Shown here piece after piece: positions 16,164 through 54,134 of a DNA stretch of 64,000 nucleotides (its first letter is position 1; each line of letters starts with the position of its first letter). The DNA is taken from NCBI GenBank assembly GCA_900767815.1, contig CAAGAM010000070.1:1315-65314 (forward strand), in the 5' to 3' direction. This stretch comes from Clostridia bacterium. GTDB taxonomy: Bacteria; Bacillota; Clostridia; Christensenellales; Borkfalkiaceae. The translations under genes were made by a program, and so were the position numbers. Under the pieces are notes generated by a model that did not search any database, was not told where the DNA came from, and was given only the letters and a program-made list of their open reading frames with translations.

Positions 16164-16904
16164 TTGTATACAACCAAAACGCCGCTATTTTCGACGATTT
16201 TTTGCAAAGGCGAGCGCAGTAGTATTGACGTACTACAAACGAGAATTTGTGAAAAAGCGCGTAAATATCGGCGTTTTGGCAGGACCCGTATTATTCTTGA
16301 CTGGCATACAACCGAAGAAAGACAAAAAGTAAAGGTTTTTGTAATGGATATGACGAACAACTATAAAGAGATTTCCTGGTTATTCCCCTCTGCCGAAATC
16401 GTAGTGGACAGGTGTCATTACGTCAGACAGGTCTACTTTGCTTTAGACGCCGTAAGAAAACGTATTCAAAAACAATTCCCGGATAACAAACGATTACACT
16501 TCAAACGCAACAAATACGTTTTATGGAAGAAGTATTCCGAACTAAACGAAGAAGATCAAATCGTTTTAAGACGTATGTTAAACCAAAGCGAAGAACTGTA
16601 CTCGGCTTGGAGCCTTAAAGAATGGTTTATTGAAATAAAGGAATTAAAAAAAGAAAAAGACGCCCGCAGGGAATTACATAATTGGCTGCTTTCGGCACAG
16701 GAAACCAATTTGTCTGAATTTAATGCTTGCATAACGGCTTTTTGCAATTGGTTCGGCTACATTATTAAAGGTTACAGACACAAAGTTACCAACGGCTTTA
16801 CCGAAGGTATGAATAACAATATTAAAGTTTTGAAACGTATTGCCTACGGGTTCAGAAACTTTGAAAACTTCCGTAAACGTATTCTTTTATGCTTCGGTAA
16901 CTGA
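16164..16904 (+). pseudogene. ISL3 transposase C-terminal portion (DDE domain), out of frame with the N-fragment
   Basis: Homology starts near nt 16320 (KVKVFVMDMTNNYKE..). The ORF N-terminus upstream of that is non-homologous read-through. Confidence 0.6.
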
Positions 16905-16981: not shown

Positions 16982-17863
16982 TTAATCGGGGCTGTCTTTT
17001 AACTTTTTAAATTCGGTGGGCGAAACGCCGAAAAATATTTTGAAGGCTTTTGAAAAGGTGTAAACGGACGAGTAGTTCAGTATTTCGGCGACCTTGGATA
17101 CAGGCAGTCGTTCGTCGCATATAAGTGTTTTCGCACGTTCCATTTTTGCCGAAACATAGTATTCGGTGATCGATTTACCCGTCGAAGCTTTAAATATCTT
17201 TGACAGATAAGAGTAGTTATAATTAAGATAGTCCGAGATATCGGACAAATTGCGGATAGAAAGCAGGTTGAGCGAGATGTAACGCATAATCATAAACGTT
17301 AACTGATCGGCGGTTTTCGGTTCGTCCGAAAGATTTGCGCCGTCGGATGAGTTGAAAAATTTCGGTATAAGCAGAACCAGCTGTTCGAGCGTAAGAGAAA
17401 AGAGGCGGTTTTCGGAATAGTTTCTTTCGGAAAGGATCGTTATTAGAAGATCTACGAGTTCGGGAATAAGTGAATTTCTGAAAATGCGTGATTTTGAAGA
17501 ATCGCAGTTTAAAACGAGCTCGTCAAAAACGGACTTGTATTCGGGGGTTGTGAAATAGAAGGAAAAGAATTGGTATGTAAGTTCGTTTTCGGGCGAAGAG
17601 CGCACACTGTGAACGTCGTAAGGAAAGGAGAGATATATGTCTCCGCTTTCGATTTTTTCTTCCCGACCATTAGTCGTGATTATGCCTTGGCCTGACCTTG
17701 CGATGGTAAGTTCGAACCAGTGCAGATGCAGATGCGGAGGGGAATAAGTATCCGACGAGCAGACTTTTTTCCCTATCTGATAAAGTCCGATTCTGTCTAT
17801 AACGAGCGGCGAGGTTATGAACTGATAATCTATAAGGTATTTTCCGTCTTCATGGTTTTTCAT
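16982..17863 (-). CDS. AraC-family transcriptional regulator (cupin sensor + AraC HTH)
   Basis: The C-terminal AraC-type HTH is recognisable, and the N-terminal region is cupin-like (HLHWFELTIARSGQG). Divergent to the locus promoter. Confidence 0.7.
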   Translation of the reverse strand: MKNHEDGKYLIDYQFITSPLVIDRIGLYQIGKKVCSSDTYSPPHLHLHWFELTIARSGQGIITTNGREEKIESGDIYLSFPYDVHSVRSSPENELTYQFFSFYFTTPEYKSVFDELVLNCDSSKSRIFRNSLIPELVDLLITILSERNYSENRLFSLTLEQLVLLIPKFFNSSDGANLSDEPKTADQLTFMIMRYISLNLLSIRNLSDISDYLNYNYSYLSKIFKASTGKSITEYYVSAKMERAKTLICDERLPVSKVAEILNYSSVYTFSKAFKIFFGVSPTEFKKLKDSPD

Positions 17864-17885: not shown

Positions 17886-18051
17886 CTTTGAAAGACAACG
17901 AATAAATAGAGAAAAATAAAAAATCACACAAAAAAACAAAAACAGGATAAATTTTTAGAATAAATAGGATATTGTAAAGCTATGCGGGACGTAGTATAAT
18001 ATAAGCGAAATAACAAACGCGGAGAAATTTATGGCAAACAATTACCCTATT
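17886..18051. repeat. copy 1 of 167-bp duplicated promoter-leader module
   Basis: About 97% identical to 22518-22684. Contains the promoter, 5'UTR and first 7 codons (ATGGCAAACAATTACCCTATT). In this copy the ORF stops after 11 codons (MANNYPIFSIY*). Confidence 0.7.
17972..18000 (+). promoter_or_regulatory. sigma-A-type promoter TTGTAA-N17-TATAAT
   Basis: -35 at 17972-17977 and -10 at 17995-18000 with exact 17-bp spacing. Divergent from the araC-family gene. Confidence 0.45.
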
Positions 18052-18313
18052 TTCTCGATATATTGAACGAAAGAAAAAGATACTACGTCGGGAAGTGGAA
18101 AAAATGGTTTGCAGGGGACAGAAAAGTAAGCGTAAAAAAAACTTTATGAGTTGTGTCTTGACGAAATCTCCCGCGTTAAAAACTATATATTGTCGAAAAG
18201 CGCTTAAAAACGCACCATTCAGACATTTTTGCCCGCGTATTCTTTATTGAAGAATGCAGGCGATAAAAATGCGCAAAAAACAGTTTACATTATATAAATA
18301 CGGAGGAAAAAGC

Positions 18314-19495
18314 ATGAAAAAAGCAGATTTTTTAACTGAAGGCGATGGCGTATTAAGACTTAAACCGACCTGGGTCCCAAGAAGTTTTTGCCGCCCGGGC
18401 AAGAGAATTAAGTTGCACCCCGACGATTATTACATTTTAGGGCTTGAAAAGGGCGGAATTGACGAAAGATGGTTTGCGTCCACCACCTGGGCGGAGAACG
18501 GACCGAACACGCCCGAGGATGAGGGGCTTTCTTACGTTGTTTCAGCCGACGGAAAGGATCAGGTTTTGCTCCGTGATATGGTAGACGAACTCAAAGGCGA
18601 GATAATCGGCGAAAATCTTTGGAACAAATATCATAAATGGCCTATGTTCTCCAAGTTTTTCGATAATGCGGGACCGCTTCCGCATCACATTCATCACCGC
18701 GACGAACACGCGAAGAGAGTGGGTAGCGACGGCAAGCCCGAAATGTACTTTTTCCCCGCGCAGATGAACAATTACGGAGCGGAGTTTCCGTACACGTTTT
18801 TCGGTCTTAATCCCGACTGCAAAAAGGAAGATATAAAGAAATGTCTTGAGAATTTCACAAAAGGCGATAACCATTTGCTCGATTATTCTCAGGCGTACAA
18901 TATAGAACTCGACACGGGCTGGGACGTTCCCCCGGGAGTTCTGCACGCGCCCGCAAGTCTGTGTACGTACGAACCGCAGTTTGCTTCGGATGTTTACGCG
19001 ATGTATCAGTCGGTTCTGCTCGGCGGGCATTGCGTTCCCGAAGATTTGCTGTGGAAAAACTGCCCGCCCGAAGAAAAAGGTAATTTCGATTATCTTATAG
19101 ACGTTATCGACTGGGAAGCCAACGTCGATCCGAAGTTCAAAGAGCATCGTTTCATGCGCCCGATCGTAGATAAAGAAGACGAAAAGCATAAGGAAGAGTG
19201 GATTTGTTATAAATCGAAACTCGCCTGCGCAAAAAGGCTTACCGTTTATCCCGGTCAGACCGTTACGGTAAAGGACAGCGCGGCTTACGGATTTATTCTT
19301 ATAGAAGGTCACGGCAAATTCGGCAAATGGGACATAGAAACGCCGACGCTCATAAGATACGGCGAACTCACGAACGACGAGTTTTTCGTAACCGAAAAGG
19401 CGGCGAAGAAAGGAATAAAAATAACAAACGAGAGCAAAACGGAAAATATCGTAATGCTCAAACATTTCGCGGAAAATCCCGACCTCAATTTTTAA
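18314..19495 (+). CDS. cupin-fold sugar isomerase-like protein (class I mannose-6-phosphate isomerase-like)
   Basis: RBS GGAGGAAAAAG then ATG at 18314. The His-rich motif PLPHHIHHRDEH and P.GVLHAP are reminiscent of PMI-type metal sites. This is a weak family assignment. Confidence 0.4.
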   Translation: MKKADFLTEGDGVLRLKPTWVPRSFCRPGKRIKLHPDDYYILGLEKGGIDERWFASTTWAENGPNTPEDEGLSYVVSADGKDQVLLRDMVDELKGEIIGENLWNKYHKWPMFSKFFDNAGPLPHHIHHRDEHAKRVGSDGKPEMYFFPAQMNNYGAEFPYTFFGLNPDCKKEDIKKCLENFTKGDNHLLDYSQAYNIELDTGWDVPPGVLHAPASLCTYEPQFASDVYAMYQSVLLGGHCVPEDLLWKNCPPEEKGNFDYLIDVIDWEANVDPKFKEHRFMRPIVDKEDEKHKEEWICYKSKLACAKRLTVYPGQTVTVKDSAAYGFILIEGHGKFGKWDIETPTLIRYGELTNDEFFVTEKAAKKGIKITNESKTENIVMLKHFAENPDLNF

Positions 19496-19497
19496 AA

Positions 19498-20397
19498 ATG
19501 AACAAAAAAGACGCAGGCAGACAAGTCGTTTCCGCTTATGATATTGCTTTTGAAAGCGGAAAAGAAAAGGGTAAACAGGGTGTGCTGGTTAACGTCGGCG
19601 CGCTCGAGGTGCTTTTCAACAAAACAAACGCGCTCGATATAGCGTGGGTAAAATACAAAGGCAACAACATTTCGTTTCTGTCTAAAAACGGTCTTAATTC
19701 TAATATCGGCGAGTTCCCGAATAAATTCGAGGGTGGTTTTTTATACACCTGCGGAACGGATAACGTAAGTTCCTGCGTAGGTGGCAAACCCGTTCACGGC
19801 AGTTTGCATTACAGCCATGTCGATAACGTTTACGTTACGATTTTGGACGATAGTGCCGAGGTTTTCGGCACGGTAAGGCAAACAGCGCTTTTCGCCGAGA
19901 ATATCGCGCTTCAAAGACATTTTACGGTAAGGGAAAACGAGATTACCGTTTGCGATACCGTTTGCAACGAGGCGTATACCGATACAAAATACGTTCTGCT
20001 GTATCACACGAATTTCGGTTATCCGTTTTTGGACGAGTGTTTAAAACTCGATATTCCGTTTGTTAAAAGCGAAGGACTTACCGATTATGCGAAAAGTCGA
20101 ATCGGTAAACAGCTACAGATAACCGAGCCGATCGACGGCGGTGAAGAGGAAGTCTTTTACAACACGCTTGAAAAGGGCGAAGTAACGCTTACCAACGAGC
20201 AATTAAAAACGCGGATAAAAGTTATATACAACGTTGAAGATTTTCCCGTTTTGTTGCAATGGAAAAGCATGATAAGCGGCGATTACGCGCTGGGCATAGA
20301 GCCGTCGCTTACGAGATTTGACGATTTCAAAATGCGCGCGCTTGCGCCCGGCGATAAAAAGCAGTACAAAATAAAATATATTTTCGGCGGACTTTAA
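19498..20397 (+). CDS. aldose-1-epimerase-like protein (DUF4432-type)
   Basis: 300 aa with a mutarotase-like central motif LLYHTNFGYPFLDE. The six-frame ORF 19327.. extends upstream into the previous gene. The ATG at 19498 directly follows the upstream stop. Confidence 0.4.
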   Translation: MNKKDAGRQVVSAYDIAFESGKEKGKQGVLVNVGALEVLFNKTNALDIAWVKYKGNNISFLSKNGLNSNIGEFPNKFEGGFLYTCGTDNVSSCVGGKPVHGSLHYSHVDNVYVTILDDSAEVFGTVRQTALFAENIALQRHFTVRENEITVCDTVCNEAYTDTKYVLLYHTNFGYPFLDECLKLDIPFVKSEGLTDYAKSRIGKQLQITEPIDGGEEEVFYNTLEKGEVTLTNEQLKTRIKVIYNVEDFPVLLQWKSMISGDYALGIEPSLTRFDDFKMRALAPGDKKQYKIKYIFGGL

Positions 20398-20418
20398 ACC
20401 GCAAAACGATAATCGATA

Positions 20419-22452
20419 ATGAAGTGGTATAAAAATATCTACAGAAGACAACTTACGGACATGCATATTGCGGACGACAAAAGCGAATATCTTTCGGCGT
20501 TCGACGCGGAAAAGTATTTTGCTTGTCTGAAAAAAGCGCATATACAAAGTCCGATGATTTATCTGCAATCGCACACCGGTTTGTGCAATTATCCTACGAC
20601 CATTGCGAAAACGCACGCAAAAATGACGGGCGAAAACAACGGCATAAAACGACTTATAAATCTGTGTAAAAAAGACGGATTGAAAGTCGTCGGTTATTAC
20701 AGTCTTGTATTCAACAACGTGGCGGCGGATATGCACCCCGAGTGGGAAATGCGTTATGCCGACGGTTCGACCTGGCGCGACAAAGGTCAAAGATACGGTC
20801 TTTGTTGTCCGAATAACATCGAGTACAGAAAATTCGTTAAGGAAAACGTTGTCGAACTTGCGGCGTATTTTACCGATCTTGACGGAATATTCTACGATAT
20901 GCCGTATTGGGAGGTTGCATGCCGCTGCGAATCGTGCAAAAAAAGATATAAAAAAGAAACGGGCAGGGACTTGCCCGAAAAAGAAGATTGGAACGATGAT
21001 AACTGGTTGCTTTATGTAAAGAAGCGTCAGGATTGGATGGTTGATTTCGTAAAATACGTTAAAAAACTGTCCAAAGCCGTTATGCCCAAAACTACCGTGG
21101 AGTTCAATTTTGCCGCGGTTATCGGCTGCGACTGGCTGGGCGGCTCTACAGAGGGCATAAACGCCGAGTGCGAGTTTACCGGCGGCGATTTATACGGCGA
21201 TCTTTACAGCCATTCGTTCACCGCTAAATACTATTATGGCATAACAAAAAATCAGCCGTTCGAGTACATGACCTGTCGGTGCAACAAGAATTTAAGGGAG
21301 CATACCATAACCAAACCGCAGGAAATGCTCGACGCGGAGATAATGCTTACATGCGCGCACCACGGCGCAACTCTCAATATAGACGCAATAAACCCCGACG
21401 GCACGCTTGACGAAAGAGTGTACGAAAGGGTGGGCAAAGCCTTTGAAAAACAAATGCCGTACGAAAAATATATGGATAAAGGCGAGTTGTATGCCGACGC
21501 AGCCGTATATTTCGACAGCAAGACCATGTTTGAAGAACCGTATGCAAAGACATACAATAAACTCTGCGCGGTAAACGCCCACAAAACCCTTGTGGAAAAA
21601 CACGTTGCGACGGCGGTAATAGCAAACGGCAATCTGGAAAATCTCGGAAAATATCGGATGATAATCGCGCCGTGTCTGCAAGATTTTTCAAACGACGAAC
21701 CGCTGAAATTCATCGAATACGTTAAAAACGGCGGCACGCTTTATCTGTCGGGCAGGAGCGATTCAAGGCTGATGAAAGAGTTCTTCGGCGCAAAGTTCGT
21801 CGGTTACACTTTCGGCGACAGCAAGTTCCCTCATGTATATAAAGGATATAACGAGGTTCAGGTATATATCGCACCCGACGGCGAGTATAAAGAAATTTTC
21901 GGCGGATTCAACGAAAAATATCCTTTGCCGATAACGTACAAACTGCCGATTTACGAAATGGACGGCAACGTTAAGGCGCATATCGTTTTGCCTTATACCG
22001 ACCCTGATAACAATCGGACTTTCGCGTCCATTCACTCGAACCCGCCTGCGGAAAAGACCGATATTCCCGCCGTGGTCGAAACATACTACGGAAAGGGCAA
22101 AGTTATATGGACTGCCGCGCTTATCGAAAACGACGAAAGGACGAATTTCAAAGATGTTTTCGGCAAAATCGTTCTCTCAAACGTTAAACCGAAATACGGA
22201 ATTTACGCAAGCAAACTTATAGAAAGCGTGATTTTCGAGGATAAAAACGACGTTTATATAAGCCTTGTAAACCTTGATCCCGTTTACGAAAAAATCGAAA
22301 GAACGGTTATAATTTCCGTGTCGGATTGCGTAAGCGCAAAAAGATTGTCCGACAACAAAAAACTTAAAATCAAAGACGGAAAGATTTCGGTCGGCGTTAT
22401 TGGTTTTGAAATGATAAAATTATCCGTTTGGTTTAATTTTAAAGAAGATTAA
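20419..22452 (+). CDS. putative glycoside hydrolase, GH42-like (TIM-barrel + beta-galactosidase-trimerisation-like domain)
   Basis: 677 aa. The central segment YRMIIAPCLQDF..EYVKNGGTLYLSG resembles the class-I glutamine-amidotransferase-like trimerisation domain of GH42 enzymes. The N-terminal region resembles a GHL-type barrel. Confidence 0.45.
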   Translation: MKWYKNIYRRQLTDMHIADDKSEYLSAFDAEKYFACLKKAHIQSPMIYLQSHTGLCNYPTTIAKTHAKMTGENNGIKRLINLCKKDGLKVVGYYSLVFNNVAADMHPEWEMRYADGSTWRDKGQRYGLCCPNNIEYRKFVKENVVELAAYFTDLDGIFYDMPYWEVACRCESCKKRYKKETGRDLPEKEDWNDDNWLLYVKKRQDWMVDFVKYVKKLSKAVMPKTTVEFNFAAVIGCDWLGGSTEGINAECEFTGGDLYGDLYSHSFTAKYYYGITKNQPFEYMTCRCNKNLREHTITKPQEMLDAEIMLTCAHHGATLNIDAINPDGTLDERVYERVGKAFEKQMPYEKYMDKGELYADAAVYFDSKTMFEEPYAKTYNKLCAVNAHKTLVEKHVATAVIANGNLENLGKYRMIIAPCLQDFSNDEPLKFIEYVKNGGTLYLSGRSDSRLMKEFFGAKFVGYTFGDSKFPHVYKGYNEVQVYIAPDGEYKEIFGGFNEKYPLPITYKLPIYEMDGNVKAHIVLPYTDPDNNRTFASIHSNPPAEKTDIPAVVETYYGKGKVIWTAALIENDERTNFKDVFGKIVLSNVKPKYGIYASKLIESVIFEDKNDVYISLVNLDPVYEKIERTVIISVSDCVSAKRLSDNKKLKIKDGKISVGVIGFEMIKLSVWFNFKED

Positions 22453-22517
22453 GCACTGTTAAAAGAGAAAATATATGACTGATGAGTTTTTGTGAAAAAT
22501 AGGCAAGGCGCATATTG

Positions 22518-22684
22518 CTTTGAAAGACAACGAATAAATAGAGAAAAATAAAAAATCACACCCAAAAAACAAAAACAGGATAAATTTTTAGAATAAATAG
22601 GATATTGTAAAGCTATGCGGGATGTAGTAGAATATAAGCGAAATAACAAACGCGGAGGAATTTATGGCAAACAATTACCCTATT
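22518..22684. repeat. copy 2 of duplicated promoter-leader module, fused to DUF4434 gene start
   Basis: Differs from copy 1 at about four positions. Its ATG at 22664 opens the 298-aa ORF. Confidence 0.7.
22605..22633 (+). promoter_or_regulatory. promoter TTGTAA-N17-TAGAAT (copy-2 version)
   Basis: Same architecture as 17972-18000, with one substitution in the -10 box. Confidence 0.4.
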
Positions 22685-23560
22685 ACGGGATCTTTTATAG
22701 ATGAAATAACCTATGATATACCGTCGTCCAACTGGACGCATAAACAATGGGCGGATGACCTCGACAATATGAAAGCCGTCGGAATGGATACGCTCGTGTT
22801 TATACGGGGAGGATTCGAGGGTAGAACGATTTTTCCGTCTGAAAACTTTTTTTGTCTTAGAAAGGACGATTTAGTCGATTTTATTTTAAAAGAAGCCGAA
22901 AAACGTGATATGAAAGTGTATATCGGCTTATATATTTCCAATCTTACATGGAACGACGGAGATGTAAAAAAAGAAATCGAAGCCAATAAACTGTTTATTC
23001 CCGAAGTTATAAAAAAATACGGCGCATATAAGTCGTTTGCGGGCTGGTATGTTCCGCATGAAGTCGCGACAAACGTTTATAATATCGGCAGACTTACTAA
23101 AAGCCTTGCGGCTATGTGTAAGGATAAAACTCCCGACAAAAAAGTGCTTTTAAGTCCTTTTTTCAAAGAGAAGACCACAGACCATAAGATTTTTACTCCC
23201 GAGCAGTTTTACGACGAGTGGGACGGGATTTTCGACGAGTTCCAAGGCGATGTGGATATCTGCGCTTATCAGGACGGCTCGGCTTCTTTAAAACAGGTGG
23301 AAGAATATTTCAAAGCTGCAAAAAAACTCTGCGACAAGCATAAAATAAGCCTTTGGCAAAACGTCGAGACTTTTGAACGTGACGTGAGATTTTTGTATTT
23401 CCCCATACCGTTCGAGCTTTTAAGAACAAAACTCGATCTTTTGGCTCCTTACGTCGAAAAAAGGATAACGTTTGAGTTTTCTCACTTTTTAAGTCCGCAG
23501 TCGATTTTCCCGTCTGCGCGGAATCTCAATAAAGTGTACACCGATTATTATGGAAAATAA
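22664..23560 (+). CDS. DUF4434-type glycoside-hydrolase-like TIM-barrel protein
   Basis: 298 aa. The N-terminal MANNYPITGSFIDEITYDIP motif and overall size fit the DUF4434 family often found beside AGE-family epimerases. Confidence 0.45.
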   Translation: MANNYPITGSFIDEITYDIPSSNWTHKQWADDLDNMKAVGMDTLVFIRGGFEGRTIFPSENFFCLRKDDLVDFILKEAEKRDMKVYIGLYISNLTWNDGDVKKEIEANKLFIPEVIKKYGAYKSFAGWYVPHEVATNVYNIGRLTKSLAAMCKDKTPDKKVLLSPFFKEKTTDHKIFTPEQFYDEWDGIFDEFQGDVDICAYQDGSASLKQVEEYFKAAKKLCDKHKISLWQNVETFERDVRFLYFPIPFELLRTKLDLLAPYVEKRITFEFSHFLSPQSIFPSARNLNKVYTDYYGK

Positions 23561-24788
23561 AATTGATATGAACGCGGATAAAATTGTTTCTTACAAAAAA
23601 TTTTACAGAGAGTTTCTGCTCGGCAACGTTGTTCCATTTTGGGAAAAATCCGACCTTATCGACAAAAAATACGGCGGTTTTATAACGAGCGTTGACGAAA
23701 TCGGAAAAAGTTATAACGATGATAAAAGCGTGTGGTTTCAAGGCAGGTGCCTCTGGACTTTTTCAAAGCTTTTAAACGAATTCGGGTATAGAAAAGAATG
23801 GGCGGAAGCGGCGGAAAGCGGCGCGGAGTTTATAAAAAAATACTGCATAGATAAAGATGGCAGAATGTTCTTCACGGTAACGCGCGACGGAAAGCCGCTC
23901 AGAAAGAGAAGATATTATTTTTCGGAAAGTTTTCTCGTTGCGGGTTTTGCCGAATATTACTTTTATACGAAAGATAAAAAAGACCTTTATTTAGCGGAAA
24001 AATATTTCGATCTCATGTACGGAATTTACCGCGACCCGTCTTCCGACCCTTTTAAAATCACGCCGAAAGAGAATGCGGAAGTGAGAAATCTTCATTCGAA
24101 CGCCAATCCTATGGTGCTTGTAAGTACGGCGCAGGAACTTTTAAGGGCAGATCCCGATAAAAAGGATTATTACGAAAAAATCATCCGAGATCTTATCGCC
24201 GACATGATGGGGCTTCATTATAAAGAAGAATATAAGTGTGTACTCGAAAACGTGTTTACAGACGGAAGCGTGCTCGATAACCCGACGGGCAGAACGATAA
24301 ACCCGGGGCATTCGATTGAAAATTCATGGTTCTTGATGAATTTTGCGGCAAATACGGGCGATAAGGAGCTTTTGAAAAAGGCTCTTAATATTCTCGATTG
24401 GTCGCTCGATATAGGCTGGGATAAAGAGTGTGGCGGAGTTTACTACTTCAGAGATGTGTTTAACCGCCCGTGCGAGCAACTCGAACACGATATGAAACTC
24501 TGGTGGGTTCACAACGAATGCCTTATAGCAACGCTTGCGGCGTATAAACTCACGGGCGACAAAAAATACTTTGACGAGTTCGAAAAAATACACGAATATT
24601 CTTTTTCGCATTTCGCGGATAAGAAAAACGGCGAATGGTACGGCTATCTGCACAGAGACGGTACGGTTTCGCACACTCAGAAGGGTTCGTTATGGAAAGG
24701 ACCTTATCATTTGCCGAGGTGTCTGATCGCCGTCGGTAAATTGCTCGATTCAATTGAAAAGGGAAGCGACTTCCCCGAATTATTGTAA
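23550..24788 (+). CDS. N-acylglucosamine 2-epimerase (AGE) superfamily protein (cellobiose/mannobiose 2-epimerase or mannose isomerase-like)
   Basis: 412 aa (alpha/alpha)6-barrel-type sequence with AGE-family motifs (RCLWTFS, NPGHSIENSWFL, WWVHNEC, HLPRC). Confidence 0.65.
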   Translation: MENKIDMNADKIVSYKKFYREFLLGNVVPFWEKSDLIDKKYGGFITSVDEIGKSYNDDKSVWFQGRCLWTFSKLLNEFGYRKEWAEAAESGAEFIKKYCIDKDGRMFFTVTRDGKPLRKRRYYFSESFLVAGFAEYYFYTKDKKDLYLAEKYFDLMYGIYRDPSSDPFKITPKENAEVRNLHSNANPMVLVSTAQELLRADPDKKDYYEKIIRDLIADMMGLHYKEEYKCVLENVFTDGSVLDNPTGRTINPGHSIENSWFLMNFAANTGDKELLKKALNILDWSLDIGWDKECGGVYYFRDVFNRPCEQLEHDMKLWWVHNECLIATLAAYKLTGDKKYFDEFEKIHEYSFSHFADKKNGEWYGYLHRDGTVSHTQKGSLWKGPYHLPRCLIAVGKLLDSIEKGSDFPELL

Positions 24789-24799
24789 ACGGAGAAAAC

Positions 24800-27211
24800 A
24801 TGAAGAAAAAAGTACATCTCGTCTGCAACGCGCATATCGATCCCATCTGGCAATGGGACTGGCAGGAGGGAGTGAGTGCGACGCTATCCACATTTCGGAG
24901 TGCAGCGAAGCTCGTCGATAAATACGATTATATATTTTGCCATAACGAAGCAACGGTTTATAAATATGCCGAGGAATACGACCCCGAGTTGTTTGAGAAA
25001 ATCAAAGAACTCGTAAAAAGGGACAAGTGGCGCATAATCGGCGGCTGGTATCTCCAACCCGACTGCAATATGCCCTCGGGCGAAAGTTTTGTTCGACAGA
25101 TAAAATACGGGTTTAAATATTTTAAAGATAAATTCGGCGTCGAACCCCCGAAAACTGCGTTCAATGTAGACGCGTTCGGACACACGAGAGGGCTTGTTCA
25201 GATTATGACGAAGTGCGGGCAGACAGGGCTTATCGTCTGTCGCCCGTATAAACACGAAATGCTGCTGGACGACAATCTGTTTACATGGAAGGGGCTTGAC
25301 GGGAGTAAAATTAAAACATTCCGCTCGCCCGACAGTTACAACACCCCGCTCGGAACTTCCGCTTGGGCAATAAAAGACAGGGCAAGCGTGAGAAAAGATG
25401 GCGAATACCTTGTACTCTGGGGAGTGGGAAACCACGGCGGAGGTCCGTCGGATAGAGATCTTGCGGATATAGAGGAACTAAAAAAGACGGACGAAGAGTA
25501 CGAATACGTACATTCTTATCCCGAAGCGTATTTTGACGAAAACGAGCCGAAAACGAAAATCGATAAATCGCTCAGAATTTCGATGCCGGGGTGCTACACT
25601 TCGCTTATAAATATAAAACAAAAGCATATAAAACTCGAAAACGAGTTGTATCTCGCGGAAATAATGTCTGCGGCGGCAAGCATGAAAGGGCTTGAAGAGT
25701 ATCCGACCGAAAAATTGTACGCGTGCTTTGAAAATCTGATGAACGGCGAATTTCACGACGTTCTGCCGGGGTCTTGCATAAAAGCGGGCGAGGATAACGG
25801 AACGGCGCTTTTTGACGGCGGCTATCTCGAAGCCACGAAGATAAAGACGAAGGCATATTTCGCTCTTTTAAACGGTCAGCCCGTCGCAAAAGAAGGCGAA
25901 TATCCCGTACTCGTATTCAATCCCCATCCTTATAAGATAACGGAGAATATCGAGTGCGAGTTTATGCTCGCCGATCAGAATTGGAGCGAACAGGTTTCGG
26001 TTATAACCGTTAAGGATGGCGAAAAAACGATAAAAAGTCAGCTGACTAAAGAGGACAGCACTATAAACCTCGACTGGCGGAAAAAAGTAATATTCGAAGC
26101 GGAACTTCCGCCTATGAGTATGAAACGTTTTTCCGTTTACGTCGAAAGAAAAGATAAAGAAGAAAAGAAAAAATCAGAAAATTTCCTGTTCGATAACGGC
26201 GTAAGCCGTGTGGAAATAGACAAGACAACAGGACTGATGAAAAGTTATTCGGTAAACGGAATTAAATACGTCGGAAACGGCTTTTCGCTCTGCATGTTCG
26301 AAGACAATCCTGACCCGTGGGCAATGGGCGCGTTTCAGCAAAATGGGATAGGCGAAAAGGAAGAACAGTTTGCTTTATCCGAAAAGCCGAGCGGAATATT
26401 CGAAGGGTTAAAGAGCGTCGAAGTCATTGAGGACGGAGATATTTATACGGGAATCGAAGCCTTTTTCGAAAAGGATAACAGCAAGGCGAGGATTGAATAC
26501 AGAATATATAAAAATTCGCCCGATATAGACGTAATCGTCAATCTCTATTTCAACGAGGCGAATAAAGTCGTCAAGTTGAAACTTCCCGTAATCGGCGGGG
26601 AAAGCGTGATAGGGCAGACGGCTTTCGGGACGGAAGAACTCTTTTCGGACGGAAGGGAGAACGTTTCTCAGAGATTCACGGGCGTGAAGGCGGGCGGCAA
26701 GGTTGTCGCGTTGATAGATAAAAGCAGGTACGGAAGCAGTTATAAGGACGGAAATCTGTACATGACGCTCGTTCGCGGAACTACCTACTGCGCACATCCT
26801 GTTTTAGACAGGGAGATAATTCCGAAAGACAGATTTACGCAGAAAGCCGATCAGGGCGAGCATGATTACTATTTCAGACTCACCGTTGCGGGCGAAAACG
26901 AACTCGAACGAAAAGCAAACAAATTTAACCGTAAACCATATGCAGTAAACGTATTCCCGACGGGTACAAGCAGACCCGAAAACGATTTTACATTCGAACT
27001 GTCAAATAAAAACATAACGCTTGTCACGATGAAAAAATCGGAAGAAAAAGATGGGTATGTTATAAGACTTCTGAACAATTCATCCGAACCCGCATCGACG
27101 GAAATAACGCTTTGCAAAGCAAAAATAAAGGCGGAATTCGGCGTTTATGAGGTAAAAACTTATTTATACGCAAACGGAAAATTAAGAGAGGAAAGAGGGC
27201 TTACGATATGA
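24800..27211 (+). CDS. GH38-family alpha-mannosidase
   Basis: N-terminal VHLVCNAHIDPIWQW and NVDAFGHT motifs characteristic of GH38. 803 aa, consistent with bacterial GH38. Confidence 0.7.
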   Translation: MKKKVHLVCNAHIDPIWQWDWQEGVSATLSTFRSAAKLVDKYDYIFCHNEATVYKYAEEYDPELFEKIKELVKRDKWRIIGGWYLQPDCNMPSGESFVRQIKYGFKYFKDKFGVEPPKTAFNVDAFGHTRGLVQIMTKCGQTGLIVCRPYKHEMLLDDNLFTWKGLDGSKIKTFRSPDSYNTPLGTSAWAIKDRASVRKDGEYLVLWGVGNHGGGPSDRDLADIEELKKTDEEYEYVHSYPEAYFDENEPKTKIDKSLRISMPGCYTSLINIKQKHIKLENELYLAEIMSAAASMKGLEEYPTEKLYACFENLMNGEFHDVLPGSCIKAGEDNGTALFDGGYLEATKIKTKAYFALLNGQPVAKEGEYPVLVFNPHPYKITENIECEFMLADQNWSEQVSVITVKDGEKTIKSQLTKEDSTINLDWRKKVIFEAELPPMSMKRFSVYVERKDKEEKKKSENFLFDNGVSRVEIDKTTGLMKSYSVNGIKYVGNGFSLCMFEDNPDPWAMGAFQQNGIGEKEEQFALSEKPSGIFEGLKSVEVIEDGDIYTGIEAFFEKDNSKARIEYRIYKNSPDIDVIVNLYFNEANKVVKLKLPVIGGESVIGQTAFGTEELFSDGRENVSQRFTGVKAGGKVVALIDKSRYGSSYKDGNLYMTLVRGTTYCAHPVLDREIIPKDRFTQKADQGEHDYYFRLTVAGENELERKANKFNRKPYAVNVFPTGTSRPENDFTFELSNKNITLVTMKKSEEKDGYVIRLLNNSSEPASTEITLCKAKIKAEFGVYEVKTYLYANGKLREERGLTI

Positions 27212-28989
27212 GATTTACCGATATAAAAATGTTTTCGGGCAATGACCTGAAAATACGCGGGGTGATGGACGATAACGTAAATTTCGTTGCCGAAAGCCAA
27301 TTGAAAAGCCGCGAAAGATGGGAGAAACTTGTCGAGCCGTTTATAACCAGAGAGGACTCCGACGGCTTCTGGCGAGGAGAGTTCTTCGGTAAAGAAATGC
27401 GAGGAGCAGCTCTTATCTATCAATATACGAAAGACGAAGAGTTATATAAAATTCTCACTGAAGCGGTGGAAAAACTTCTCGCCGCTCAGGACGAAAAGGG
27501 CAGAATATCGACTTATAGCGAGGCTTCCGAGTTTAACGGCTGGGATATGTGGTGCAGAAAATACGTCCTCACGGGCGTTCAGCATTACTATCGCATTTGT
27601 CGTGACGAGGGTTTCAAGAAAGAAATTCTGTCGGCTTTATCTAAGCATGCCGATTATATAATTTCGAAAATCGGCAACGGCGAGGAGCAGAAAAAAATAA
27701 CCGAAACATCGTCCTGGTGGGGCTGTGTGAATTCCTGCACGATTTTAGAGCCTATGCTCGAGCTTTATAAGGAAACGGGCGAAAAACGATATTTTGAATT
27801 TGCGAAGTATATAATTTCGACGGGCGGTAGTTCCGATTGTAACTTTTTGGAACTTGCTTTGGAAAACAGGCTTGCGCCCTATCAATACCCCGTCGTTAAA
27901 GCTTACGAATCGATGTCTTATTTTGAGGGGCTTCTCGCTTACTATGAAATTACAGGCGAAGAAAAATATTTTACGGCAGTTAAAAATTTCGTTGAAGCTG
28001 TTGAGAGAACCGATATGACTGTTATAGGCTGTTCGGGTTGCACGCACGAGCTGTTCGATAACTCGTCCGTAAAGCAAACAGAGTACGCCGAAAACATAAT
28101 GCAGGAAACCTGCGTCACCGTTACATGGATGAGAATTTCCCTCAGAATGTATCTTGAAGCGGGCGAAAGAAAGTTTATCGATCGAATCGAAAAATCGGGT
28201 TTAAACGCCTTATACGGCAGCTTAAATAAAAAACACAACGCAATTTACAATCTTCTGGATAAGAAGTTCGTAAGCGGTATGACTTTTGATAGTTACAGTC
28301 CGTTATATATGAATACCCGCGGCAGAGGAACAGGCGGATATATGGAATTTTTGCGCGGCGGCTCGTGCGGGTGCTGTGAGGCGATAGGCGCGTGCGGCGT
28401 TGCGTTGATGCCGCTTACGGCGGTTATGTCGGCAAAAGAGGGCGTTATCGTAAACTATCTTTTCGGCGGCGAGTTAAGCGTTAAAGACAAGAACGGGGAA
28501 TCGGTAAAACTTCTGTTTGAAAGCGATTATCCCTCCGAAAACACCTGCAAAATAACTGTTTCAAGCGACGGCAAAGTAAATCTCGGAATGTTTATCCGTC
28601 TGCCCGAATTTGCGGACGGAACGACGATAAACGGGAAAACTTATACGGGAGAATATGCCGATATAAGCGGCGAATATTCGGGCGGAGATGTAATAGAAAT
28701 CGGATACAATGTCGGGCTTAAAGTTTTAAGACTCAACGGAAAAGTTGCGTTTTCATTTGGCGCGATCACCCTCGGGACGGATGAAGAAAAGTTTGACGGC
28801 GATATCGAAAAACCGATAAACGTCACCGATAACCCCGTCTATAAGTTGATTAAACAGCAAAAAGATGAGCTATTGCGAGTTGAAATCTCCTTGAAAGACG
28901 GCGAGGAAATAACACTTTCGGATTATCAGTCCTGCGGCAAAAACTGGCGCGGAAAAAGAAACAGAACAACCGTTTGGTTTAATGCGTGA
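27208..28989 (+). CDS. GH127/GH146-like (DUF1680-type) glycoside hydrolase
   Basis: 593 aa (alpha/alpha)6-like. QETC and GSCGCCE motifs resemble the Glu-x-Cys ... Cys-Cys zinc/catalytic site of GH127 beta-L-arabinofuranosidase-type enzymes. Confidence 0.5.
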   Translation: MRFTDIKMFSGNDLKIRGVMDDNVNFVAESQLKSRERWEKLVEPFITREDSDGFWRGEFFGKEMRGAALIYQYTKDEELYKILTEAVEKLLAAQDEKGRISTYSEASEFNGWDMWCRKYVLTGVQHYYRICRDEGFKKEILSALSKHADYIISKIGNGEEQKKITETSSWWGCVNSCTILEPMLELYKETGEKRYFEFAKYIISTGGSSDCNFLELALENRLAPYQYPVVKAYESMSYFEGLLAYYEITGEEKYFTAVKNFVEAVERTDMTVIGCSGCTHELFDNSSVKQTEYAENIMQETCVTVTWMRISLRMYLEAGERKFIDRIEKSGLNALYGSLNKKHNAIYNLLDKKFVSGMTFDSYSPLYMNTRGRGTGGYMEFLRGGSCGCCEAIGACGVALMPLTAVMSAKEGVIVNYLFGGELSVKDKNGESVKLLFESDYPSENTCKITVSSDGKVNLGMFIRLPEFADGTTINGKTYTGEYADISGEYSGGDVIEIGYNVGLKVLRLNGKVAFSFGAITLGTDEEKFDGDIEKPINVTDNPVYKLIKQQKDELLRVEISLKDGEEITLSDYQSCGKNWRGKRNRTTVWFNA

Positions 28990-53797: not shown

Positions 53798-54038
53798 TCT
53801 CGAAACAATTGAATAAAAAACGAGTCTTTTACATTCTCTCTGCCGTCCGCTGAAACGGATAAGCAACAGAACAAAATGTTCGATCGATTCGGCGCAACCG
53901 AGTCGTGGCGAAAACAAGCAGAGAAAATAATGATACTTGCGTCCAGTCTCAGGTCGAGCGTTGAAGCGGAAGAAATTCCGTGAGCCGTCGCAACCAAAGA
54001 GGGCGTCCCGGCGAGAACCGCGGGGAGGTGAAATTCCT

Positions 54039-54134
54039 ATGAGAGTAAAGGCATACTCGGAAGACAACGTAAATTTTGAGAAAACGATTGATACAAGAGC
54101 CGATAAAAAGGCTTTTTTAGAAGCGATTGGCTGA
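54039..54134 (+). CDS. 31-codon ORF upstream of mazF-like toxin (possible degenerate or atypical antitoxin)
   Basis: A GGAGGTG RBS lies 8 nt before the ATG, and the ORF ends 38 nt before the toxin start. No RHH/MazE-like sequence recognised. Confidence 0.2.

Follow-up and report, generated by a model that had tools for sequence, protein, structure and literature searches.

Double illegitimate recombination is known from natural transformation of Acinetobacter baylyi, SPDIR (double illegitimate recombination over short patches) being its short-patch form, and models of duplication by long-distance template switching exist. Capture of a promoter by duplication, in the rnk-citT module, reportedly gave citrate use in the long-term evolution experiment with E. 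coli. Activator-dependent promoters of the AraC/XylS type, such as araBAD with its I1-I2 sites and the Pm promoter of XylS, contain a pair of direct half-sites spaced by about two helical turns, of which the proximal one overlaps the -35 box. The microindels described for SPDIR range from 3 to about 100 base pairs (bp), and for short patches it is documented that bacteria can integrate heterologous DNA under the guidance of microhomology (bioRxiv 10.1101/2023.11.22.568220). Here a stretch of 64,000 nucleotides (nt) from a Clostridia bacterium (assembly GCA_900767815.1, contig CAAGAM010000070.1, positions 1,315 to 65,314, forward strand), referred to as the window, was analyzed for a direct repeat of about 167 bp, which flanks a block of three genes, A, B and C, located between araC1, a divergent gene for an AraC-family regulator, and a DUF4434 gene.

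The event behind this arrangement is of a known kind, combining an illegitimate insertion mediated by microhomology with the duplication or capture of a promoter and with operon shuffling, and involves no new element or mechanism. The repeat is likely to be a target duplication, produced by one microhomology-mediated illegitimate insertion, after which A-B-C came to be read from copy 1 and DUF4434 from copy 2. Taken by themselves, the structural origin, i.e. insertion with target duplication, appears very likely, and the functional part moderately so.

As in illegitimate recombination of A. baylyi and in SPDIR, two short microhomologies appear to have been the points at which heterologous DNA was joined, without a recombinase site or extended homology and with donor and target otherwise unrelated. 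The insert is, however, 4.5 kb long and comes with a target duplication of 152-166 nt, and, whereas SPDIR is an observed mutation, the event in the window is natural, fixed and deduced from metagenome contigs. As in rnk-citT, genes lacking a suitable promoter were put behind a second copy of a promoter and of the 5' end of a gene, while the original gene kept its own; in that module a whole segment was tandemly duplicated within one locus, whereas here only the promoter region was, as a by-product of inserting a fragment of an unrelated operon. The module resembles AraC/XylS promoters in its divergent AraC-family gene, in its two direct repeats, which are spaced 22 bp and of which the proximal one adjoins a weak -35 (TTGTAA), and in an A-rich upstream tract. 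The candidate half-site sequence is, in contrast, unrelated to those of the known regulators, and in some relatives DUF4434 has no adjacent araC1. The locus offers a fully traceable case of natural rewiring of an operon and regulon without mobile-element machinery, in which a donor-like locus, an empty target, both junctions and the microhomologies are visible.

The two copies of the repeat are in direct orientation, at a start-to-start distance of 4632-4633 nt, and share 97.0% identity over 167 aligned columns by blastn. Four substitutions and one indel of 1 nt, located in a C/A run, set them apart; identity breaks off abruptly at both edges, and the flanking sequences are unrelated. A core 27-mer occurs exactly twice in the window, versus 0 occurrences expected from 100 shuffles. 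Both copies include the seven codons ATG-GCA-AAC-AAT-TAC-CCT-ATT (MANNYPI) of the DUF4434 gene; their presence in copy 1 means, therefore, that the start of that gene was duplicated. The initial annotation had described a direct repeat of this size, about 97% identical and 4.6 kb apart, and blastn, pairwise alignment and coordinates all agree with it. It had also placed a TTGTAA-N17-TA(T/G)AAT promoter and the codons MANNYPI in each copy, with copy 1 stopping after 11 codons and copy 2 running on into DUF4434: the promoter scan recovered both sites, the same seven codons were read in both copies, and the short frame and the intact gene were located as reported in Table 1. To that description the present analysis adds the source of the insert, the junction microhomologies, which explain the promoter duplication, and the conserved half-sites.

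The insert, spanning 18052-22517 (4466 nt), has a close counterpart in a locus from a relative, L111: window positions 18048-22527 are 99.2% identical, over 4480 nt, to L111 9736-14214, and the two share no other sequence. In L111, and likewise in L112, the order of the operon is DUF4838 protein-1048aa-GH115-A-B-C-41aa open reading frame (ORF), lengths being in amino acids (aa). Position 9736 of L111 falls within an intact GH115 ORF of 665 aa (Pfam E 1.8e-48), so placed that the insert begins 159 nt before the GH115 stop codon; its other end lies about 65 nt past gene C. Both ends are thus at arbitrary positions inside genes, the GH115 ORF on the left and the remnant ORF on the right. By tblastn, residues 610-665 of GH115 match window positions 18036-18204, and the window contains only this C-terminal remnant of GH115, which is frameshifted there (A8 vs A7) and in frame in the sister strains. 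A comparison of GH115 with PDB stopped short of the C-terminus and gave no independent confirmation of the 53 codons as native GH115. Genes that L111 has whole, or in longer form, are truncated in the window, and the transfer is therefore read as going from an L111-like operon to the window-type locus.

An ORF of 74 aa, called at L002 5320-5544 and at equivalent positions in L003-L010, L109 and L110, is a chimera: its first part is promoter and leader sequence in a different reading frame, and the remainder is the C-terminal remnant of GH115. In the window, the TATAAT change and a frameshift interrupt this ORF, which is almost certainly not a gene.

The junctions were read from three-way alignments of donor-like L111, the window junction and the uninterrupted copy of the target. 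At the left junction, donor and target share TATT (4 nt), and at the right one CTTTGAAAGA (10 nt); beyond these two microhomologies, no similarity between donor and target was found. The "167-bp repeat" can accordingly be described as 152 nt of unambiguous target duplication, plus the 10 nt and the 4 nt of microhomology. Neither a transposase, integrase or other recombinase gene nor terminal inverted repeats were found within 18052-22517.

These features would be accounted for as follows. In the ancestral state, one promoter would have stood between the divergent araC1 and DUF4434-epimerase-GH127-ABC transporter. From another glycan operon (...GH115-A-B-C-remnant ORF), a fragment of 4466 nt would then have been copied, its left end being joined to the target after DUF4434 codon 7, at TATT, and its right end 152-166 nt further upstream, at CTTTGAAAGA. 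Because the right join lies upstream of the left one, half-sites, promoter, ribosome-binding site and seven codons are found on both sides of the insert. Replication template switching is the most likely process, and the simplest single one, for this outcome: the nascent strand would leave the target after DUF4434 codon 7, prime on the donor at TATT, copy 4.47 kb, and rejoin the target at CTTTGAAAGA, a site behind the one that it had left. Alternatively, a linear fragment may have been joined by double illegitimate recombination at staggered positions, on sister chromosomes or on a gapped target.

The empty site was found in three loci (L017-L019), in which a single promoter has a divergent araC on one side and DUF4434-epimerase-GH127-solute-binding protein (SBP)-permeases on the other, without the A-B-C block; their DUF4434 is 77% identical to that of the window at the amino acid level. 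Comparison with related genomes, which the initial annotation had proposed as a way to find the block absent and the promoter in single copy, thus turned up such relatives at 65-77% identity. With the donor-like segment of L111, they favor the first of the two alternatives of that annotation, namely insertion of the three-gene block behind a duplicated promoter beside araC; the second, that two co-regulated units were created, holds as a consequence of the insertion rather than as a rival to it. No near-identical block-less allele of the window lineage was found among the DUF4434-bearing contigs, nor in the JGI metagenomes, a search of low power, the relevant samples being in ENA.

Many human-gut metagenomes (Hadza, Nepal, others) yielded contigs whose DUF4434 protein is identical to that of the window. 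All those that reach far enough contain araC, copy 1, A-B-C, copy 2 and DUF4434, and the edges of their repeats coincide. Identical junctions were observed in 13 independent contigs (L002-L010, L109, L110, L113, L114), and L001, probably the source of the window, is 100% identical to it. Copy 1 has GGAGA as its ribosome-binding site, versus GGAGG for copy 2, a difference fixed in all strains; the TATAAT -10 box and the 1-nt deletion of copy 1 are found only in the window and L001, the other strains having TAGAAT. Since edges and junctions are identical across contigs and the GGAGA/GGAGG difference is fixed, the alignments indicate a single insertion event, apparently older than the radiation of the strains.

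The direct repeat-insert-repeat topology is also that expected from a single crossover, and a Campbell-type homologous integration, in which a circle with the block and a 166-bp promoter copy recombined with the chromosomal promoter, was considered. Such a circle could equally be an excision product of the present arrangement, and, if it already contained the 166 bp, the same two illegitimate junctions would be needed beforehand, so that the origin is left unexplained. L111 has GH115 coding sequence on the left of the segment and the remnant ORF on the right, with no promoter-like copy beside it, and similarity between donor and target amounts to only the 4 nt and 10 nt at the junctions; this explanation is accordingly improbable. 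Insertion of a mobile element, with the repeats as target-site duplication of a transposon or, if an island had integrated, as its att sites, is brought to mind by an ISL3 transposase fragment (16164-16904) and conjugative-element genes just upstream of araC, and by the outer araC flank, which varies between strains and carries integrases. This mobile DNA ends, however, within the araC 3' end, near 17018, outside the repeat. The insert lacks transposase, integrase and terminal inverted repeats, its ends are truncated ordinary genes (the GH115 3' end and the remnant ORF), and a duplication of 152-166 nt is far above the target duplications of transposons, none of which, to our knowledge, comes near this length. 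For an att island, a common core would be expected, and donor-like locus and target share just the two microhomologies; a mobile element is the least credible of the origins considered. The absence of inverted repeats and recombinase, the lack of extended homology between donor and target, and ends lying in ordinary genes thus disfavor transposition, site-specific integration and a Campbell origin alike, and leave illegitimate insertion with target duplication as the preferred explanation.

Sequences shared by the copies of the duplicated module were searched for in the related loci. The half-sites ACAGGATA and ATAGGATA (AYAGGAYA) lie in direct orientation at a spacing of 22 bp, and the proximal one adjoins the -35 TTGTAA; within the window, the motif is found only in copy 1 and copy 2. 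The string AYAGGAYA-N14-AYAGGAYATTGT occurs once upstream of DUF4434 in L012, L013, L017-L019, L021, L022, L106 and L107, i.e. in nine loci from three relatives, and twice in each window-type locus; a variant of it precedes DUF4434 in L108. The motif is thus conserved in four lineages, and was found at no position other than upstream of DUF4434 in any locus fetched. Because of this confinement, the duplicated module is, judging by the motif, natively the DUF4434 promoter. The search for AraC-type half-sites common to both copies, as suggested by the initial annotation, hence yielded two candidate direct half-sites per copy, conserved in relatives, and with them a candidate operator for an uncharacterized AraC regulator. 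In the 13 independent contigs, the promoter and half-site positions of copy 1 are all intact. As to RNA elements, no riboswitch or other Rfam match was found in the repeat or leader, which fold no better than shuffles.

The divergent araC1 starts 22 nt from copy 1. Its product is 65% identical, at the amino acid level, to that of the L017 araC, and 27% to that of the araC beside A-B-C in L012; araC1 is the ortholog of the araC found beside DUF4434 in block-less relatives. A divergent araC next to the motif-bearing promoter is present also in L017-L019 and L108, and control of the half-site promoter by the divergent AraC protein is plausible.

In the L111 operon, A-B-C is located 106 bp behind GH115 and has no promoter of its own, and the scan of the + strand detected no promoter-like site from the end of the copy 1 promoter to gene A (18001-18313). 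Since neither the donor-like operon nor the sequence before gene A offers another start, A-B-C should be read from copy 1, and would then be transcribed under the regulator of DUF4434, presumably the divergent AraC-family protein acting on the two direct half-sites. Copy 2 would provide the DUF4434 operon with a promoter, a ribosome-binding site and a start codon that are all intact. The scan detected no terminator-like site in the leader, nor any in the interval from gene C to copy 2 (22453-22517), and the predicted folds of both stretches are no better than those of shuffles; because no terminator separates gene C from copy 2, the DUF4434 operon may also receive read-through. An insertion without duplication would have stripped DUF4434 of promoter, ribosome-binding site and start codon, and it is the duplication that would make the event tolerable. 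One illegitimate insertion would in this way have put a cassette behind a regulated promoter, and spared the signals of a gene otherwise decapitated. Both AraC binding and the activity of the two promoters are predicted from sequence. Loss of the block by recombination between the repeats is possible in principle.

Copy 1 might, alternatively, be a neutral scar, either not working as a promoter or not needed for the expression of A-B-C, in an arrangement that persists because it is recent. The divergence between copies (1-5 differences per 167) is similar to that between strains (0.3-1%), and the conservation of copy 1 is therefore inseparable from recency. A scar of this sort would, however, leave A-B-C, promoterless in the donor-like operon, with no other promoter-like site before gene A; its promoter and half-sites would hardly be expected intact in 13 contigs, nor would the sole change in the -10 box, from TAGAAT to TATAAT, be expected to go towards the consensus. 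The region from araC to DUF4434 is, moreover, over 99% identical where its neighbors differ by 10-35%, which suggests recent spread and argues against decay. A neutral scar is on the whole unlikely.

Several points weigh against the reading of the repeat as a target duplication that now drives A-B-C from copy 1. Copy 1 could be weak or silent, with A-B-C read from an unrecognized promoter. Genomes of the L012 type have the motif before DUF4434 without an adjacent araC1, and, because of this, the link between motif and AraC rests on adjacency in some lineages only. Even the closest of the block-less relatives is rather remote (DUF4434 77% identical in amino acids, intergenic region about 65% in nucleotides), and represents the pre-insertion sequence only approximately. 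L111 is a donor-like relative from another sample, and the donor may have been either intragenomic or incoming. As for the process, the sequence alone fits template switching and double end-joining alike.

The positions of all features are collected in Table 1.

Table 1. Features of the repeat, the insert and the neighboring operon. Positions refer to the window; a slash marks the junction point.
Feature	Position	Strand	Description
Repeat copy 1	17886-18051	+	166 nt: A-rich tract, 2 half-sites, promoter-like site, GGAGA, ATG and first 7 DUF4434 codons
Repeat copy 2	22518-22684	+	167 nt: A-rich tract, half-sites, promoter-like site, GGAGG, ATG at 22664 of intact DUF4434
Candidate operator, copy 1	17942-17975	+	ACAGGATA-N14-ATAGGATA, then directly TTGT of the -35
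Candidate operator half-sites, copy 2	22575-22608	+	motif search
Promoter-like site, copy 1	17972-18000	+	TTGTAA-N17-TATAAT, promoter scan
Promoter-like site, copy 2	22605-22633	+	TTGTAA-N17-TAGAAT, promoter scan
Vestigial ORF MANNYPIFSIY*	18032-18067	+	7 DUF4434 codons joined to insert sequence; stop follows codon 11
Left junction, donor			...GCGCAATATT/TTCTCGAT
Left junction, window			...TTACCCTATT/TTCTCGAT
Left junction, uninterrupted target (copy 2)			...TTACCCTATT/ACGGGATC
Right junction, donor			...CATATTGCTTTGAAAGA/AGATGGG
Right junction, window			...CATATTGCTTTGAAAGA/CAACGAAT
Right junction, target (copy 1)			...GAAAAATCTTTGAAAGA/CAACGAAT
Left insert end	18052-18206	+	last ~53 codons of GH115 gene; 99% identical to L111 9740-9894
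Spacer before gene A	18207-18313	+	brought in with the insert; homologous to L020 5' untranslated region from 18188 on
Right insert end	22453-22517	+	spacer after gene C and first codons of remnant ORF (41 aa in L111)
AraC-family regulator araC1	16982-17863	-	Pfam HTH_18, HTH_AraC, AraC_binding
Gene A	18314-19495	+	393 aa, highly conserved, uncharacterized, weakly like mannose-6-phosphate isomerase
Gene B	19498-20397	+	DUF4432 protein, 299 aa, E 1.4e-44
Gene C	20461-22452	+	GHL6-type putative glycoside hydrolase, GH42 trimerisation domain, 663 aa; longest ORF from 20419
DUF4434 gene	22664-23560	+	298 aa, Pfam E 3.7e-57; first gene of the original operon
AGE-family epimerase	23550-24788	+	operon downstream of DUF4434
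GH38	24800-27211	+	operon downstream of DUF4434
GH127	27208-28989	+	operon downstream of DUF4434
ABC-transporter genes	from 29095	+	operon downstream of DUF4434

The genomic background of the unit was analyzed by aligning the window to the L002-type contigs (L002-L010, L109). Identity is above 99% from about 17020, inside the araC 3' end, to 23550, the end of DUF4434. Outside this interval, divergence amounts to 10-14% in the epimerase gene and to 17% in GH127, and for the ABC-transporter genes matches are limited to short stretches of 65-69% identity. Both breaks, at about 17020 and at 23550, are sharp, and the left flank is unrelated mobile-element DNA. The pattern suggests that the composite araC-copy1-ABC-copy2-DUF4434 unit was recently exchanged between diverged backgrounds, or that its neighbors were replaced. 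A broader reading can be offered tentatively: the locus may be a natural footprint of long-distance template switching in gut Clostridia, and a one-step adaptive rewiring, in which a promoterless cassette was captured under the DUF4434 regulator with the old operon left intact, the unit then spreading by homologous recombination into diverged backgrounds and A-B-C being a recurrently shuffled module.

Homology between strains ends inside the araC 3' end (the C-terminus being at 293 or 289 aa), and the DNA beyond differs with each background. In the window, this left flank includes the ISL3 transposase fragment and conjugative-element genes (MobL, TraG-like, Toprim); tyrosine integrases are found in L003 and L017, Abi and helicase genes in L002, and HamA with a DEAD helicase in L109. 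From this variety, the araC 3' end looks like an integration hot spot.

In most relatives, A-B-C forms the 5' part of another operon, A-B-C-190aa-GH2-...-SBP-permeases, located behind a different AraC regulator (araC2). The promoter of this operon is strongly conserved and absent from the window; retention of an araC2-type promoter there was rejected, as its strongly conserved motif could not be found even with 3 mismatches allowed. The A-(DUF4432)-GHL6 cassette is accordingly observed in three operon contexts: the araC2 type (L012, L020, L021, L024, L106), the GH115 type (L111) and the window. Similarity between the araC2 type and the GH115 type or window begins just downstream of the araC2-type -10 (window 18188), and stops about 30 nt before the gene C stop codon (22422). 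Because it is bounded at these two positions, an earlier relocation of the A-B-C cassette seems likely. A deletion model was also tried, by which copy 1 and the block would derive from an L012-type locus (promoter-DUF4434, reverse araC2, A-B-C) by loss of DUF4434 and araC2. It was ruled out, since the comparison of 18052-18187 with araC2-A intergenic regions scores as shuffles do, and the segment proved to be the GH115 3' end.

The gene labels of the initial annotation stood in part. DUF4432 for gene B and GH42-like for gene C (GHL6 plus GH42 trimerisation) were recovered, whereas "isomerase-like" for gene A found only weak backing, in matches to mannose-6-phosphate isomerase structures at E 0.04-0.1, and is kept as a tentative label. 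Gene A matches no Pfam or NCBIfam family. Its protein, which carries a His-rich PLPHHIHHRDEH motif, has at least 8000 matches, the best 120 listed being all at least 78% identical; its AlphaFold model is poor (predicted local distance difference test score, pLDDT, 56, from a shallow alignment). The arrangement ties this gene without a family, a DUF4432 protein and a GHL6 enzyme to the DUF4434/epimerase/GH38/GH127 locus, which is probably a glycan-utilization locus of uncultured human-gut Clostridia. A literature search on DUF4434 gave nothing useful.

Within the operon, both the window and L001 have a GH38 alpha-mannosidase gene, of which the L002-type contigs keep only a remnant of the 3' end, about 140 nt long and 83% identical to window 26784-26923, a presence/absence polymorphism. 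Elsewhere in the window, and unrelated to the repeat, Rfam reports a pemK RNA (RF02913) at 53927-54042 (+), with 68.3 bits and E 3.6e-10.

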